Below are positions 1,788-62,422 of a stretch of DNA of 64,000 bases, in pieces. Under the pieces are notes generated by a model. That model was not told the origin of the DNA. It saw nothing but the letters and a program-made list of their open reading frames with translations, and did no database searches. The stretch comes from Candidatus Micrarchaeota archaeon (GTDB taxonomy: Archaea > Micrarchaeota > Micrarchaeia > Micrarchaeales > Micrarchaeaceae). Positions within the stretch are counted from its first letter, which is position 1. Every line of letters starts with the position of its first letter. A program made the position numbers and the translations under genes. Location of the stretch: contig JAGWHU010000001.1 in the NCBI GenBank assembly GCA_028866575.1, forward strand, positions 197-64,196, in the 5' to 3' direction.

Positions 1788-1896
1788 TGCAGGGGGTGAG
1801 ATTTGAACTCACGAAGGTGCTAGACCACAGGATCTTAAGTCCTGCGCGATTTTCCGTGGCATAGCTTCTTGCCAGACCAGACTCCGCAACCCCTGC
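1788..1896 (-). tRNA. tRNA-Leu (anticodon UAA) with a putative ~23-nt intron at a non-canonical D-loop position
   Basis: Minus-strand sequence GCAGGGG…CCCCTGCA forms a 7-bp acceptor stem. T-arm GTGAG-TTCAAAT-CTCAC. Anticodon arm CAGGA-CTTAAGA-TCCTG. Long variable arm. The 109-nt length is about 23 nt longer than a mature class-II tRNA. The excess maps between the D-stem halves GCGG…TCGC. Confidence 0.6.
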
Positions 1897-12314: not shown

Positions 12315-12346
12315 GCTGTAAGCAATTCTAAGATTCGTAAATGAAG

Positions 12347-12419
12347 TAGCCCCGACCGGATTCGAACCGATGTAAACGGGTCCAAAGCCCGCTATCCTTG
12401 GCCACTAGATGACGGGGCT
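12347..12419 (-). tRNA. tRNA-Gln (anticodon UUG)
   Basis: 73 nt. Acceptor AGCCCCG/CGGGGCT. Anticodon arm GCGGG-CTTTGGA-CCCGT. T-arm ATCGG-TTCGAAT-CCGGT. Confidence 0.7.
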
Positions 12420-20282: not shown

Positions 20283-20419
20283 TGGGGTCGCTGGGATTTG
20301 AACCCAGATTTGCAGGTTACTTCATATTTTTCTGTATTCCAGATCTTAATCATCGCGTTTGCTCAATATACATATAAACATCTGGAGCCTGCCGCGCTGC
20401 CAAGTTACGCTACAACCCC
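20283..20419 (-). tRNA. tRNA-Trp (anticodon CCA) with a ~63-nt intron at the canonical 37/38 position
   Basis: Acceptor GGGGTTG/CGACCCC. D-arm GCGT-loop-GCGC. Anticodon stem GCAGG/CCTGC with loop CTCCAGA interrupted by the intron. T-arm CTGGG-TTCAAAT-CCCAG. Confidence 0.7.
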
Positions 20420-50927: not shown

Positions 50928-51037
50928 GGGTCCATAGCTCAGCCTGGTCAGAGCGGCTGGCTCTTAACCAGTAGGTCGGGGGTCCAAAGTAAAATTTTGG
51001 CTAGTGCTGAATTTTAGAGGAAATCCCCCTGGACCCG
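50928..51037 (+). tRNA. tRNA-Lys (anticodon CUU) with a ~35-nt intron inside the T-loop (non-canonical position)
   Basis: Acceptor GGGTCCA/TGGACCC. D-arm GCTC…GAGC. Anticodon arm GCTGG-CTCTTAA-CCAGT. T-stem GGGGG/CCCCC encloses 42 nt instead of 7. Confidence 0.65.
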
Positions 51038-51055
51038 TAATGTTCCAATCCTTTT

Positions 51056-52024
51056 TCAAGGATACCTTTTTCTCAATTCAACCAGTTTATCCATAAGGCC
51101 GTCCATCATGGGGGTAAACTTCAGCTTGTACTTTTTCAGGTATTCGATATCCCTGAATGCAAGCTTTCTGCCGTGGTGGCGCATTATGCCTGCCTCAAAT
51201 ATCGACAGGTAAAGCGTCTCTGTTTCTTTCTCGCTAAGTTGCTTGTCCATAACCAATTTCAGGGCAAGCTTCCCATATTCAGGAATATCTTCCTTAATGA
51301 GATTTTCGATGCCTTTTTTGTCTGCAGGATCGGAGAATATTATAAGGTAATTCTCGAAGCTCTTCAAAGAGCCTACGCCCCACGGGTTGTTTATTCCTAT
51401 TCTTTTGTAGCTTTCGAGCAGCTTTTCCCTTATTGATCCTGTAGGCCTTATATTTATGGTGTCCATAATGGATTTTGCGTTTTCGAGGTTTCTCTTGGAC
51501 GGCTTATCCTTTAGGAACAATGTGGATTCGTATATCTTGTTTGCGGTTTCCTGGCTTATCCTTGCCCCTACAATGCTTGTGTATTTTTTCAATGAAGATA
51601 CAAGATGCCCGTACGGCACATCCGTTATCAATTTGACGATGCGGTCGTTTTGGCTTTTGGATATGTTTATGCCCGCGATTTCCCCCATCAGCTTTATCCT
51701 GTCCATCTCGACGTTGCTTATGTAGCCGCTTTTTTTGGCGAACTCCGACATCCTGTTGATTATGGCGTCGTAACCAGCGGCTACAACATCCTTTTCCTTG
51801 CCCCAATCAAGCTTTACGCCTGTATTTTTAATGTAGAGCTGCGCGTTCCCTGGTTGGCCCCCGAAAATGAAATAGCGTATGTATTCCTTGACGGTCCATG
51901 TTGAGGAAGGGCCGGACTTCCTTAGCAGATTACCCGCGTTTTCGAGCTCTCCTCGCTCCAGCTTTGCGATGAGATCGTCATTGAGCAGCTCTTTCGGAGC
52001 AGATTTTTCCTTTTGCATGGGCAA
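51056..52024 (-). CDS. hypothetical protein (322 aa)
   Basis: Long ORF with no motif I can assign. Lies between tRNA-Lys and endA. Confidence 0.4.
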   Translation of the reverse strand: MPMQKEKSAPKELLNDDLIAKLERGELENAGNLLRKSGPSSTWTVKEYIRYFIFGGQPGNAQLYIKNTGVKLDWGKEKDVVAAGYDAIINRMSEFAKKSGYISNVEMDRIKLMGEIAGINISKSQNDRIVKLITDVPYGHLVSSLKKYTSIVGARISQETANKIYESTLFLKDKPSKRNLENAKSIMDTINIRPTGSIREKLLESYKRIGINNPWGVGSLKSFENYLIIFSDPADKKGIENLIKEDIPEYGKLALKLVMDKQLSEKETETLYLSIFEAGIMRHHGRKLAFRDIEYLKKYKLKFTPMMDGLMDKLVELRKRYP

Positions 52025-52050
52025 TCACAGATATGCAAAAATAGGCTTGA

Positions 52051-52347
52051 TCATGCTGGCTGCCTTTCTCCAGGGTCCTTCCTCCTAAGCTCCTTAAGCT
52101 TCCTTTTCCCCGCAGATATTGCTATGGGTACTGCAGGAGCTATCGCTGCGATATAAAATGCACCAACGTGATGGCTTTCCAGATTATATATTGATTTGTC
52201 GGCATATGCAAATGCGCTTAGAAATAGGATGTTTTCCATGCTTACTATCGTTCCCCTTATTACCCCGTATCCCAGCGAAAAGCGTTGCTTCTTCGAATCT
52301 GTCATTGTTGCATGGGCTTCTGGATTATCCTTTGAAACTGAAACCAT
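52051..52347 (-). CDS. small membrane protein (98 aa)
   Basis: Two hydrophobic segments. Weak call. Confidence 0.3.
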   Translation of the reverse strand: MVSVSKDNPEAHATMTDSKKQRFSLGYGVIRGTIVSMENILFLSAFAYADKSIYNLESHHVGAFYIAAIAPAVPIAISAGKRKLKELRRKDPGERQPA

Positions 52348-52389
52348 AATATCACTATTAAGCGCTTTGCCTTGTCCAGATATTTATAC

Positions 52390-53562
52390 CTATGGCTGCA
52401 TCCAGTCTATCTCGTAATACTCGTAGTCGCTGCCCTGCAGCTCTATCCTCTTGACCCTGTAGTATGTTACCGATGATTCCCTGTCGGCTATTGCTATTAT
52501 GAGCTCCTGCCTGTTTGACTTCGCCTCGTTTATTATCGCTGATAGTTCTGCCCCGCCTATGTACTCCTCCTCGCTTAGGGAAAGCATCCCGAATCTCGGC
52601 TTGGTTTTTTCCGGGGTTTCTATCTCGTTGCCCCGCCTGTGGTATAGCGCGAAGTCTATCGCCAATGTCTTTCTCCTGCTTTTTCCAGGTATTGCGAGTA
52701 TGAAGGTCTTCCTTACCGAGTGCGCCACCCTTATCACCCTTGCCCATTCCGATATCAGGAGCTTCGTATCCCTGGGGAACACGTGTATGACGTGCATCGA
52801 ATGTATCCACGATGAATCGGTCTTTACAGGCTGTGCCCCTGGAAAATACACCCTGAAATGCGTACCGAACTTGAATCCGGTCTTTATCACGTAGCCCTTG
52901 GACCTCCAGTCTGCATATACGGAATACAGCTTTTGGAAGTCCGATCTCCTTTTTTCTGCGATCTTTATTATTTCCCTTTTGGTGAAATTGGATACGCCCA
53001 GTATTCCGAGGTTTATCAGGAAAAGTGTTTCGTATATGTCGAGCTTGTTAAGCCTGCCGTGCTCCTTCACCTTATAGGTCCCGTGCTGCCCGAACCAGTG
53101 CTCGTTGTAAATGCTTCTTCCCTTTTCCTCGTCATCAACAACGGTTATCATGTCTTCTATGAAGAAAACCCCTTTTATTGCACGTGCCTTGACCCTCAGC
53201 TGCTGCGCGTGGTATTTTTTAATTTGCATGTTAGCCTTCCCAGCGACAGGTTCGTATTTTTCAGGACCCTTTATTATAAGTCCGCGGTCCCTCCAGTCCT
53301 TGTAGGTGAAATATCTGGCCATGAACTTCTTGCCCGTGCTGAATTTCGAGGCGACGTCGTTGAACGAAAGCTCTGTCTCGCCATCGGGGGTCGTGCACCT
53401 CGCATTCCTCACGTCCATGAGGTACAATGCCTCTTCGGGAAGCATGACAAGTTTTCTTCCCTCTACTGTTCCGAAGAAGCTCCCAGTAAGTATGTCCTTA
53501 GTAGACTGGTCCACAGCGTATGTGCTCTTTTGCGTTGAATCAAAATGTATTAGCAGTGACAT
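52390..53562 (-). CDS. endA: tRNA-splicing endonuclease EndA, unusually long multi-unit form
   Basis: 390 aa. Catalytic-unit motif …KTGFKFGTHFRVYFPG…WIHSMHVIHVF… (conserved Tyr/His; Lys ~285) in the middle. Degenerate N-terminal repeat (1-~135). ~90-aa C-terminal extension. Confidence 0.65.
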   Translation of the reverse strand: MSLLIHFDSTQKSTYAVDQSTKDILTGSFFGTVEGRKLVMLPEEALYLMDVRNARCTTPDGETELSFNDVASKFSTGKKFMARYFTYKDWRDRGLIIKGPEKYEPVAGKANMQIKKYHAQQLRVKARAIKGVFFIEDMITVVDDEEKGRSIYNEHWFGQHGTYKVKEHGRLNKLDIYETLFLINLGILGVSNFTKREIIKIAEKRRSDFQKLYSVYADWRSKGYVIKTGFKFGTHFRVYFPGAQPVKTDSSWIHSMHVIHVFPRDTKLLISEWARVIRVAHSVRKTFILAIPGKSRRKTLAIDFALYHRRGNEIETPEKTKPRFGMLSLSEEEYIGGAELSAIINEAKSNRQELIIAIADRESSVTYYRVKRIELQGSDYEYYEIDWMQP

Positions 53563-53566
53563 CCTA

Positions 53567-54325
53567 TCATTCCGTTGCCCTTGCTGACAAAGCCTCCTTT
53601 TCTATATCCTTTAGCTCTGCAGGTATTATTATTACGTTGACACCACCGTAGTCAAGCGATTCCGCCTCTTTTATGCTAGTAAGCACCACTTTGGCATCAT
53701 CCTGAAGCATGTTGTGGAGTATGATTATCCTTGTAGCGGGGTTTATCACCCCTTTCTTGTAATGCGCCTCGGATTTCTCGATTATTGAAACTGCTTCCCT
53801 TATGCTTATCGTGCTTTTGCTTTTTGAATCGTAGTCCAGAAGCAGCATCGTGTGCTCGCCGTTATTAAGGTTGGTTGCTATCTTTTCGTAAAATGATACA
53901 GGGGAATAATGCTCGCTCCACCGCGGTATTGTGCATGTGCTTCCGAACCTGTAGAAATCCAGCCCGCTCTCTCCTATCGCAGTAGTCATTATAGAGTTTG
54001 CGTGGACGGCAACAGTTTTGACATTGTGTTTTTTTGCCTCTATGTAGAGTATCTTGTGCGTTGTGGCTATCAGCGGATCCCCTCCGACCAGTATCGCTAT
54101 GTCCTTCACCGAAGCCATGCTTACAAGCTCTGCCGCGCTGTCCTCCATGTCCTCCCTTGAGAGCTCGGTTATCCGCTTGCCGGTTGCGCTGGTTATGTAG
54201 TCCTTTGTGCTTTCGCCAACCGCGCTCGTGAATGTATCGATGTAGAGCTCGCAGTTCCTGCATACATCAATGGCTCCTGCGGTTATGTCCTTTTCCGAAA
54301 GGCCGAGTCCCACTAAAAAGAGCAT
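53567..54325 (-). CDS. dph5: diphthine synthase (Dph5)
   Basis: 252 aa. MLFLVGLGLS…YIDTFTS tetrapyrrole-methylase-fold N-terminus typical of Dph5. Confidence 0.75.
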   Translation of the reverse strand: MLFLVGLGLSEKDITAGAIDVCRNCELYIDTFTSAVGESTKDYITSATGKRITELSREDMEDSAAELVSMASVKDIAILVGGDPLIATTHKILYIEAKKHNVKTVAVHANSIMTTAIGESGLDFYRFGSTCTIPRWSEHYSPVSFYEKIATNLNNGEHTMLLLDYDSKSKSTISIREAVSIIEKSEAHYKKGVINPATRIIILHNMLQDDAKVVLTSIKEAESLDYGGVNVIIIPAELKDIEKEALSARATE

Positions 54326-54329
54326 GAAA

Positions 54330-55283
54330 TCAGTCTTTTATCCCTGTAGGGGTTATCTTTATCACGCATTCCCCCTCAGGCATGTTTGGCGAATCCACAA
54401 GCCTTGCAATCCTCTTGTCCTCCTTGCTCTTCTTCATGTAGAGCCTTGTTGTGGCTGCATGTGCAAGAACGTTTCCGCCTATCGGCGTAGTGGGGTCCCC
54501 GAATAGTATCCCGGGATTGTCCATCACCTGGTTGGTTATGTATACTGCAAGGTTGTACTTGTCCGCAAGCGTCTGGAGCCTGTGTATGTGCTGATTCAGC
54601 TTTTGCTGGCGTTCCCCCAGTGCGCCCCTACCTATGAATTCGGACCTGAACAGCGCCGTAAGCGAGTCAACAACTATGAGCTTTATGCCCTTTTCCAGTA
54701 TCAGCTTGTCGGCCCTCTCGACGGTGAGCACCTGCTGCTCGGTTGTGGTGGCGCGGACGACCATTATCCTCTCCAGGGATGATTCTGGATCCATGCCTGC
54801 GGCCTCTGCTATCGACTCTATCCTCTCCGGCCTGAACGTCCCTTCAGTGTCTATGAACAGGACAGACCCGTCAACCCCTCCTTTGTCCTTGGGAAGAAGC
54901 GCATTAACGCATAGCTGGAAGCCGATCTGGGTCTTCCCGCTCGCGAACCTGCCGTAAGCCTCTGTTATCGCGCACGTTTCCACGCCGCCGCCTATGAGCT
55001 CGTTGAGGCCCTTTGAGCCTGTCGATATCTTGCCGATTTCTTTCCTTTTCTTGTATACCGCGCTGCCGGTCTCATAGCTTATGGATGTCGATTCCTTCGC
55101 GGTTTGGATTGCCTTCTTTGCAGCATCAACGCTTATCCCAGCAAGCTCGTTTAGCTCATGGGGTGAAAGGGTTGCGATCTTGTCAAGCGAGTCTATCCCG
55201 GAAGACCTAAGCTTTTCCGCGGTTGTTGGACCGATGCCAGGCAAGTCCTCTAGCTCCTTTATTGATTTTTCCTTAGCCATCAA
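54330..55283 (-). CDS. radA: DNA repair and recombination protein RadA
   Basis: 317 aa. N-terminal HhH (LPGIGPTTAEKL). Walker A GRFASGKTQ. Walker B LIVVDS. Confidence 0.9.
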   Translation of the reverse strand: MMAKEKSIKELEDLPGIGPTTAEKLRSSGIDSLDKIATLSPHELNELAGISVDAAKKAIQTAKESTSISYETGSAVYKKRKEIGKISTGSKGLNELIGGGVETCAITEAYGRFASGKTQIGFQLCVNALLPKDKGGVDGSVLFIDTEGTFRPERIESIAEAAGMDPESSLERIMVVRATTTEQQVLTVERADKLILEKGIKLIVVDSLTALFRSEFIGRGALGERQQKLNQHIHRLQTLADKYNLAVYITNQVMDNPGILFGDPTTPIGGNVLAHAATTRLYMKKSKEDKRIARLVDSPNMPEGECVIKITPTGIKD

Positions 55284-59442: not shown

Positions 59443-59601
59443 TTCAGTAATATTTTCCGTGTATTGTATTTAGGCTTTTCTGTTTTGATTCGGTTTCGCG
59501 ACTTCATTATGGCCAGTCATGCCATTTACTGCAGCGTTTTATTATGTCATTAGCGGAAGTGAGGCGCGTGGGAGCTGATTCTTTAGGAAAAAATCCGTTT
59601 A

Positions 59602-59674
59602 TGCGGGCACCGGGATTTGAACCCGGGTTGCAGCCTTGGGAAGGCCGCGTCCTACCAGGCTAGACTATACCCGC
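59602..59674 (-). tRNA. tRNA-Gly (anticodon CCC)
   Basis: 73 nt. Acceptor GCGGGTA/TGCCCGC. Anticodon arm CGGCC-TTCCCAA-GGCTG. T-arm CCGGG-TTCAAAT-CCCGG. Confidence 0.75.
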
Positions 59675-59739
59675 AATTTAAATAGTATTATAGGAAGCAG
59701 GTTTTGCGGCACTGTGCATAGTTCCCGCATAGAACATGG

Positions 59740-62153: not shown

Positions 62154-62257
62154 TATTCGTGGTGTTTTATATATTATATGATATTTATTAAAAGAACATT
62201 AAAATTTTATTATACCCAAAACCGGAAAGAAATATTACCGGAAGTGTAAGGTCATAA

Positions 62258-62332
62258 TAGCGAGGAATGGATTTGAACCATTGATCTCCGGGTTATGAGC
62301 CCGGCGGGCACTCCAGACTACCCTACCTCGCT
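62258..62332 (-). tRNA. initiator tRNA-Met (anticodon CAU)
   Basis: A1:U72 pair. Acceptor AGCGAGG/CCTCGCT. Three G:C pairs in anticodon stem CCGGG-CTCATAA-CCCGG. T-arm AATGG-TTCAAAT-CCATT. Confidence 0.7.
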
Positions 62333-62422
62333 AACATATAATATAAGAAACAACCCTTATTTAGGTTTTCCTATACAACAATTAACAAATAACACAAAAC
62401 ATCAAAAAACCAAAGTGAGTTT

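Follow-up and report, generated by a model that had tools for sequence, protein, structure and literature searches.

We analysed a 64,000-nucleotide (nt) stretch of contig JAGWHU010000001.1 from a Candidatus Micrarchaeota archaeon (ARMAN-type, DPANN), which is called the window here and to which all coordinates refer. Our focus is the span 50928-53562, where a tRNA-Lys(CUU) gene with an interrupted T-loop lies 1.35 kb from the gene of a tRNA-splicing endonuclease (EndA) of 390 amino acids (aa), close to the 1.3 kb given in a preliminary description of this DNA. The window has a G+C content of 47.6% and contains six tRNA genes, three of which are disrupted:

50928-51037, forward strand: tRNA-Lys(CUU); exon 1 50928-50988, intron 50989-51023 (35 nt, T-loop, 59/60), exon 2 51024-51037
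1788-1896, reverse strand: tRNA-Leu(UAA); exon 1 1896..1875, intron 1874..1852 (23 nt, D-loop), exon 2 1851..1788
20283-20419, reverse strand: tRNA-Trp(CCA); exon 1 20419..20382, intron 20381..20318 (64 nt, 37/38), exon 2 20317..20283
12346-12419, reverse strand: tRNA-Gln(UUG), without intron; ARAGORN and Rfam
59601-59675, reverse strand: tRNA-Gly(CCC), without intron; ARAGORN and Rfam
62257-62333, reverse strand: tRNA-Met(CAU), without intron; ARAGORN and Rfam

With default settings, ARAGORN calls only the three intron-less tRNAs (Gln, Gly and Met) in the window. Rfam adds an interrupted tRNA at 20283-20419(-), a truncated match at 50928-50986(+) with 30 bits and a weak match at 1789-1896(-), tRNA-Leu giving only a sub-threshold tRNA-Sec match. 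The gathering-threshold match of Rfam to tRNA-Lys was rejected, since it wrongly takes GGGGUCC for the 3' acceptor strand. Two custom scans for an acceptor stem and T arm, one with an intact T-loop and one with an interrupted T-loop allowed, revealed no seventh tRNA-like gene and no second Lys(CUU) or Leu(UAA) gene in the window; the remaining candidates of these scans are inside coding sequence and are not tRNA-like. Removal of the inserts restores a standard cloverleaf tRNA in all three disrupted genes, and ARAGORN calls the products spliced in silico as Lys(ctt) of 75 nt, Leu(taa) of 86 nt and Trp(cca) of 73 nt. Orthologues and in-silico splicing therefore bear out the preliminary description, according to which three of the six tRNAs carry introns and only tRNA-Trp has one at the canonical 37/38 site. 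The proportion of disrupted genes (3/6) is in line with Candidatus Micrarchaeum acidiphilum ARMAN-2, where 56% of the tRNA genes are disrupted (PMC3239211).

Orthologues for comparison were collected in three ways. For EndA and tRNA-Lys, 80 EndA-linked loci (L001-L080) were kept, nearly all labelled Micrarchaeota and including the cultured Candidatus Micrarchaeum sp. A_DKE and one Mancarchaeum metagenome-assembled genome (MAG); these loci provided 41 tRNA-Lys(CUU) orthologues. As no Leu or Trp orthologues were present within the 80 EndA loci, eleven tRNA-Leu(UAA) orthologues were obtained by a metagenome pattern scan with a 22-nt query consisting of the D-stem 3' strand and the anticodon arm, and five tRNA-Trp orthologues (L092-L096) were reached through the neighbouring DUF929 gene, upstream of which they lie. 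These orthologue comparisons exclude chance as the source of the disrupted tRNAs. A generic finder of bulge-helix-bulge (BHB) motifs gave many spurious candidates and was helpful only after the orthologues had set the register. Single-sequence minimum-free-energy folds of the pre-tRNAs surpassed shuffles only modestly (z of -2.2 to -2.8), did not recover the cloverleaves and are not counted as stand-alone evidence.

In tRNA-Trp, the Rfam match to 20283-20419(-) scores 50 bits and contains a 68-nt insertion in the anticodon loop, the position of which is left undefined by the model. The insert is 64 nt in length and follows directly after CUCCAG, which places it at 37/38. In all five syntenic orthologues the exon still ends in CUCCAG and the intron in GAAGUA↓A (the arrow marks the cut) beside the anticodon stem, and all five carry a related intron of 67-68 nt, none being intron-less. 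If 37/38 is taken as the site, the 3' cut UA↓A lies in a 3-nt bulge on the anticodon stem, the central helix is formed by CUCC/GAAG with a C34.A mismatch, and the 5' site AG↓A falls within an enlarged bulge, after which comes an AU-rich inner helix.

ARAGORN labels the same gene Arg(CCT) when introns are allowed, and together with the undefined insert position in Rfam this could suggest a tRNA-Arg(CCU) with an intron within the anticodon. We consider this identity very improbable and rejected the label on the basis of BHB geometry, orthologue conservation and the call of the spliced product. Under the Arg reading the 3' cut is two unpaired nucleotides off the anticodon stem and no helix or bulge fits, whereas the Trp reading provides the 3-nt bulge on the stem and the CUCC/GAAG central helix. 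Moreover, the exon CUCCAG is invariant in the five orthologues, the 73-nt spliced product is called as Trp, and an intron stretch complementary to U33-G37 is conserved, as it is in known archaeal tRNA-Trp introns.

The intron sequence of tRNA-Trp itself is conserved in the five relatives and contains GCGAUGA(UGA) followed by GAUCUGGAAU, the latter being complementary to U33-C34-C35-A36-G37 and two intron nucleotides. The arrangement resembles the box C/D guide for Cm34 of euryarchaeal tRNA-Trp introns and may be a guide for 2'-O-methylation of C34. Rfam gives no support: no box C/D family was detected in the intron with Rfam, and the D-box candidates are poor (CAGA/AAGA).

The tRNA-Lys gene contains the acceptor strand GGGUCCA, standard D and anticodon arms, the T-stem strand GGGGG, 42 nt, and then CCCCC UGGACCC G. 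The only sensible 7-nt T-loop in this arrangement is UCCAAAU, whichever cut register is chosen within the run of A residues, and the insert amounts to 35 nt between A59 and U60. Twenty of the 41 syntenic orthologues are intron-less, with the T-loops UCCAAAU, UCCGAAU or UUCAAAU, while the other 21 carry an insert of 13-44 nt, invariably after position 59. This polymorphism confirms the insertion of about 35 nt inside the T-loop that had been noticed in the preliminary description. Once spliced, the tRNA-Lys of the window (T-loop UCCAAAU) is equal to its intron-less orthologues.

A relaxed BHB motif can be drawn at the exon-intron junctions of the window tRNA-Lys. The T-stem serves as the outer helix (h), U54C55C56(A57) pairs with (A)GGA, the fourth pair of this central helix being an A.A mismatch, and the 3' bulge is AA↓U. 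In the fold, a small internal loop holds the 5' site AA↓G, and an AU-rich hairpin of 8 bp (UAAAAUUU/GAAUUUUA) closes this loop. The same layout is kept in the orthologues: the T-stem as outer helix, a 3-nt bulge with the 3' site AA↓U, a central helix of 3-4 bp and the 5' site AA↓N. The partners of nucleotides 54-57 in the 21 intron-bearing genes are the four nucleotides before the last three of the loop (AAU, AUU or ACU). Of 84 cells, 75 are paired in this register and no more than 48 after the partner has been shifted by one to three positions; 1 of 2000 column shuffles attains the observed value. Position 55 covaries with its partner among the 21 orthologues (C-G nine times, U-A nine times, U-G twice). 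The shortest introns (13-15 nt) have no inner helix and resemble in this respect the 13-nt hBH intron at 59/60 of ARMAN-2 pre-tRNA-Cys, which is cut in vitro by the ARMAN-2 enzyme (PMC3239211).

A further feature of the tRNA-Lys T-loop (50983-50988 and 51024) is the presence of C55, the loop being UCCAAAU or UCCGAAU in the window gene and most of its 41 orthologues, those without an intron included. Position 55 is near-universally U (pseudouridine 55) in tRNAs. Among the intron-less Lys(CUU) genes called by ARAGORN in all fetched DNA, TCC occurs 17 times and TTC three times; the other intron-less tRNAs called there have nearly all TTC, one Gly excepted. In the intron-bearing tRNA-Lys genes, C55 pairs with an intron G.

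The position of tRNA-Lys(CUU) just downstream of EndA and on the opposite strand is found in 41 of the 80 related loci, and such a neighbourhood of enzyme and substrate could be taken for functional coupling, for example co-regulation or co-transfer. This seems very unlikely, as 20 of the 41 neighbouring tRNA-Lys genes have no intron, the two genes are convergent, not co-transcribed, and the content of the spacer is variable, the open reading frame (ORF) 51056-52024 within it being unique to this genome. Since half of the neighbouring tRNA-Lys genes are intron-less, the adjacency is a conserved synteny which is independent of the intron. The spacer between tRNA-Lys and EndA ranges from ~60 nt to ~1.7 kb in the relatives.

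The tRNA-Leu gene (reverse strand, 1788-1896) reads GCAGGGG UU GCGG, a 34-nt D-loop, UCGC and a normal anticodon arm (CUUAAGA); the variable arm is long and the T arm normal. Its insert of 23 nt comes after G18 G19 U20 C20a. Ten of the eleven orthologues have 20-29 extra nucleotides at the same place of the D-loop, with conserved ends (NGGC ... GCCA CGGAA) and variable interiors, and one, in locus L083, has none, its intron-less D-loop being AGUCCGGUCAA. This comparator sets the splice register of the window gene, in which the intron is the 23-nt UGGCAAGAAGCUAUGCCACGGAA located between C20a and the two A residues that precede the D-stem (1874..1852). The exon-intron helix consists of C17-G43, N18-N42 and G19-C41 (numbered along the gene); as read by eye from the orthologue sequences, pair 18:42 is U:G, C:G (L084, L090) or U:A (L087). 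This helix is bordered by U-C↓N and A-A↓A. GGC/GCC forms a conserved inner hairpin, and there is hardly any outer helix. An alternative register, with U16-A44 as a fourth pair, would result in a 25-nt intron and a 9-nt D-loop; the invariance of C22 and the intron-less comparator make it the less likely one. The approximately 23 nt assigned to the D-loop in the preliminary description thus agree with the orthologues, and 23 nt are favoured over 25.

It may be asked whether the extra nucleotides of tRNA-Lys and tRNA-Leu are introns at all, or whether these genes are decayed pseudogenes or encode mature tRNAs with enlarged T- and D-loops. The default ARAGORN search misses both genes, the Rfam matches to them are truncated (Lys, 30 bits) or below threshold (Leu), and the BHB motifs are imperfect, all of which would suit such an explanation. 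However, the exons are 93-100% conserved across species while the inserts vary in length and sequence, the intron-less orthologues equal the spliced product, and an exon-intron helix of 3-4 bp with a 3-nt bulge after it stays in register, compensatory changes included. In addition, the custom scans found no other Lys(CUU) or Leu(UAA) gene in the window, and the 59/60 site is cut in vitro in ARMAN-2 pre-tRNA-Cys (PMC3239211). Among the orthologues the inserts behave as introns, and we regard pseudogenes or enlarged loops as highly improbable.

None of the Lys, Leu and Trp introns forms the strict hBHBh' motif (two 3-nt bulges with a 4-bp helix between them). The exon-intron junctions, the folding of which had been proposed as a check, show relaxed motifs in all three: each has a 3-nt 3' bulge (AA↓U in Lys and UA↓A in Trp, both on the stem; AA↓A in Leu) and a central helix of 3/4 pairs. 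As drawn here from aligned genes, these putative motifs fit the relaxed classes (hBH/HBh') which are reportedly cut by EndA enzymes of the epsilon2 type.

The enzyme encoded in the span has the three-unit build of this type. Its gene and units are:

52390-53562, reverse strand: epsilon2-type EndA ORF, 390 aa; full-length match to PDB 4fz2/9w2k
53065-53562, reverse strand: degenerate N unit (alphaN/alpha-p, pseudo-catalytic), aa 1-166; 47% identity to ARMAN-2 1-163; weak PF12928 match
52684-53064, reverse strand: catalytic alpha unit, aa 167-293; Y239/H254/K285 and pocket K227; 72% identity to ARMAN-2
52393-52683, reverse strand: structural betaC unit, aa 294-390 (97 aa); 73% identity to ARMAN-2 291-387; L10-loop D360

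A phmmer search against the PDB aligned residues 1-390 to residues 1-387 of the ARMAN-2 EndA chain (4fz2/9w2k) with an E-value of 3e-165, and the global identity of the two proteins is 61%. Pfam places PF01974 at residues 209-292 (E 4e-30) and PF02778 at 140-191, and weak matches to the beta subunit and Sen15 are seen in the C-terminal unit at 326-375 (Pfam/NCBIfam). Within the N unit, aa 80-103 align weakly with aa 209-232 of the catalytic unit as an internal repeat (E 3e-4), and this alignment ends before the catalytic Tyr; by eye, and not residue by residue, no HxxH or SVRK-like motif is seen in aa 1-166, which agrees with a pseudo-catalytic unit lacking the triad. Alignment to ARMAN-2 together with the Pfam and NCBIfam matches therefore upholds the unit order given in the preliminary description (a degenerate N-terminal unit, a central catalytic unit and an extra C-terminal unit of ~90 aa, here 97 aa).

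The functional residues of ARMAN-2 EndA, whose roles are known from mutagenesis and crystallography (PMC3488258, PMC3239211), all have a counterpart in the window protein. The catalytic triad Y236, H251 and K282 corresponds to Y239, H254 and K285; the loop GTYKVSEH (158-165) with K161, which is involved in the recognition of relaxed substrates, corresponds to GTYKVKEH (161-168) with K164 and spans the boundary between the N unit and the alpha unit; and K224 and D357, which make the L10-pocket dimer contact and for which ARMAN-2 mutants have been described (PMC3239211), correspond to K227 and D360. All six residues (Y239, H254, K285, K164, K227 and D360) are invariant in an alignment of 118 EndA homologues. 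Every testable feature of the epsilon2 class at the sequence level was found, except that for the loss of the triad in the N unit the support is indirect.

In the NCBI database the protein is 100% identical to MDE1870669.1, 'tRNA-intron lyase [Candidatus Micrarchaeota archaeon]', encoded on a 188-kb contig, and the best 120 database relatives are 357-406 aa in length and 60-81% identical. At least 126 species-level genomes, almost all of Micrarchaeota, encode a relative. By its sequence, the window EndA is consequently assigned to the epsilon2 family as published, of which it is an ordinary member. A small number of epsilon2 EndA genes come from bins assigned to Marsarchaeota, Nitrososphaerota, Methanothrix or 'Acidiferrales bacterium'; since their proteins are 59-70% identical to Micrarchaeota proteins, the contigs probably belong to Micrarchaeota and were binned wrongly, rather than being evidence of the enzyme in other phyla.

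That the protein could be a standard two-unit alpha'2 enzyme with an extended non-EndA tail is almost certainly wrong: although alpha'2 chains are the next-best PDB matches (2gjw, 1r0v and 3p1y, E ~1e-25 to 2e-25; those of A. fulgidus, 2gjw/1r0v, are ~305-313 aa long and match at ~2e-25) and NCBIfam models of the alpha'2 type match far below their cut-offs, these chains cover essentially residues 166-291 only whereas 4fz2 covers 1-390, the last 97 aa share 73% identity with ARMAN-2 betaC and give weak beta-subunit/Sen15 matches, and L10-loop D360 and pocket K227 are invariant.

The closest studied system is therefore that of ARMAN-2, with whose EndA the window enzyme (390 against 387 aa) shares the end-to-end alignment, the three units, the Y/H/K triad, the loop GTYKV-EH with its essential Lys and the K/D pair of the L10 pocket; its host is likewise rich in non-canonical tRNA introns, those at 59/60 of the T-loop included. 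One difference is K241 in a second loop of ARMAN-2, which is Q244 in the window protein, but that loop has been reported to be dispensable for activity. The ARMAN-2 enzyme has been demonstrated to be a homodimer which cleaves strict as well as relaxed BHB motifs, a T-loop intron at 59/60 among them (PMC3239211, PMC3488258, PMC12397907), its loop residue K161 is required for relaxed substrates (PMC3488258), and an RNA-bound epsilon2 structure exists (PMC12397907; 9w2k). ARMAN-1 EndA (JF433956) is 390 aa long with units of 166/127/97 and 62% identity to the 387-aa ARMAN-2 enzyme (PMC3239211); the same length, the same unit sizes and a similar identity to ARMAN-2 are seen in the window protein, a likeness that is drawn from the published description. 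The (alpha-beta)2 EndA of Crenarchaea and Nanoarchaea also has a catalytic and a structural unit, a Lys-bearing loop near the active site and cleavage of relaxed BHB motifs at non-canonical positions. However, it consists of two polypeptides forming a heterotetramer, its PDB matches cover the alpha or the beta unit alone, and its Crenarchaea-specific loop is inserted at another place, is unrelated in sequence and is convergent (PMC3488258). The euryarchaeal alpha'2 enzyme (A. fulgidus 2gjw/1r0v) shares the fused-chain homodimer and the catalytic C-terminal domain, but it has two units in ~290-315 aa, lacks the specificity loop and cuts strict hBHBh' motifs only.

Taken together, we consider it very probable that the window EndA is the epsilon2 enzyme of this lineage and that the Lys, Leu and Trp pre-tRNAs are its substrates. 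The assignment is based on orthology, conserved residues, intron positions, polymorphism among orthologues and helix covariation, while for dimerisation, catalysis, relaxed specificity and ligation we rely on the published ARMAN-2 work. By homology, two EndA chains would make a homodimer by contact of the L10 loop of betaC (D360) with the pocket of the alpha unit (K227), and each alpha unit would contribute one active site (Y239, H254, K285), one per bulge of the BHB motif. K164 of the loop GTYKVKEH would hold the bulge phosphate, so that imperfect BHB motifs outside the anticodon loop could be cut and motifs that have imperfect helices or lack flanking helices processed (PMC3488258, PMC12397907). 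The predicted substrates are pre-tRNA-Lys(CUU) with its 35-nt intron, pre-tRNA-Leu(UAA) with its 23-nt intron and pre-tRNA-Trp(CCA) with its 64-nt intron, and an RNA ligase would then join the exons. The idea that a three-unit EndA of broad specificity is paired with non-canonical introns is in this way supported, by a full-length epsilon2 orthologue for the enzyme and, for its probable specificity, by the biochemistry of ARMAN-2.

Several observations weigh against this interpretation. The central helices are all imperfect (A57.A in Lys, G.A in Leu, C34.A in Trp), and the 5' sites of Lys and Trp are in an internal loop or an enlarged bulge and not in a clean 3-nt bulge. The BHB columns of tRNA-Trp are invariant among the orthologues and hence give no covariation support, and the choice between 23 and 25 nt in tRNA-Leu hangs on a single intron-less comparator, L083, which is itself unusual. 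The exact cut sites are predictions from the orthologues and the BHB rule, and splicing in this genome and the activity of the window EndA are likewise predicted.

The unusual comparator, at ~341-450 of a 1650-nt metagenome contig (Ga0116153_10059216), is a tRNA-Leu(UAA) orthologue that appears circularly permuted. The last 14 nt of the tRNA (U60, the T-stem 3' strand CUUGU, the acceptor strand CCCCUGC and A73) sit 14 nt upstream of G1, and the tRNA body terminates at UUCAAA (A59), i.e. the junction is at 59/60. The leader ...G UGAA AAU offers the central helix and 3-nt bulge already seen in the T-loop introns of tRNA-Lys. The trailer holds CUUGC, which is able to pair with the T-stem 5' strand, so that the gene may instead be a rearranged pseudogene. 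No homologue of its flanking ORFs occurs in the window or the other loci, and a search of a collection of papers found nothing joining permuted tRNA with Micrarchaeota, DPANN or ARMAN. We tentatively suggest, as a possibility with the odds against it, that the in vivo substrates of epsilon2 enzymes exceed the two substrates tested in vitro and that L083 holds a permuted tRNA-Leu(UAA) gene with its junction at 59/60. All three window introns, the one at the canonical site included, have a mismatched central helix, and the T-loop intron of tRNA-Lys(CUU), which is polymorphic among Micrarchaeota species, interrupts a loop with C55. If this is confirmed, L083 would bring a permuted tRNA gene to a lineage in which the papers searched report none.

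The neighbourhood of EndA includes the following genes, and a VKOR-family protein and an HD-domain protein are encoded upstream of the span:

51056-52024, reverse strand: orphan ORF of 322 aa, between tRNA-Lys and EndA
52051-52347, reverse strand: small ORF of 98 aa, with a homologue in L001 alone
53567-54325, reverse strand: diphthine-synthase-like methylase, downstream and on the same strand as EndA
54330-55283, reverse strand: RadA, downstream and on the same strand as EndA

For the orphan ORF neither Pfam nor NCBIfam gives a match, and none of the 80 EndA loci contains a homologue.

The earlier interpretation of this locus was right; our comparison supports it, yet the system had already been published and structurally solved. 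Publications from 2011 to 2025 cover this class of enzyme, its free and RNA-bound structures, its relaxed specificity and its connection with the heavily disrupted tRNA genes of Micrarchaeota, and nothing found here departs from Fujishima 2011, Hirata 2012 and Miyata 2025.

Over the 80 EndA loci, every one of the 20 tRNA-Lys genes without an intron was called by ARAGORN, and all 21 with an interrupted T-loop escaped it. Run with its intron option, ARAGORN mislabels several interrupted genes, a tRNA-Gly(CCC) orthologue in L013 being called Trp and others Phe(aaa). The tRNA-Gly(CCC) orthologues (L013 123-213, L066 103-187, L032 and L044) carry inserts of 12-18 nt in or near the anticodon loop which are lacking in the window copy, and this intron is thus polymorphic. 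As interrupted genes were missed or mislabelled by ARAGORN, the tRNA counts reported for Micrarchaeota MAGs are likely too low. Standard tRNA finders miss half of the tRNA genes of the window, and BHB-aware tools are needed for Micrarchaeota MAGs. With an intron at a single fixed site in half of them, the 41 tRNA-Lys genes constitute a data set for studying the gain and loss of non-canonical introns.

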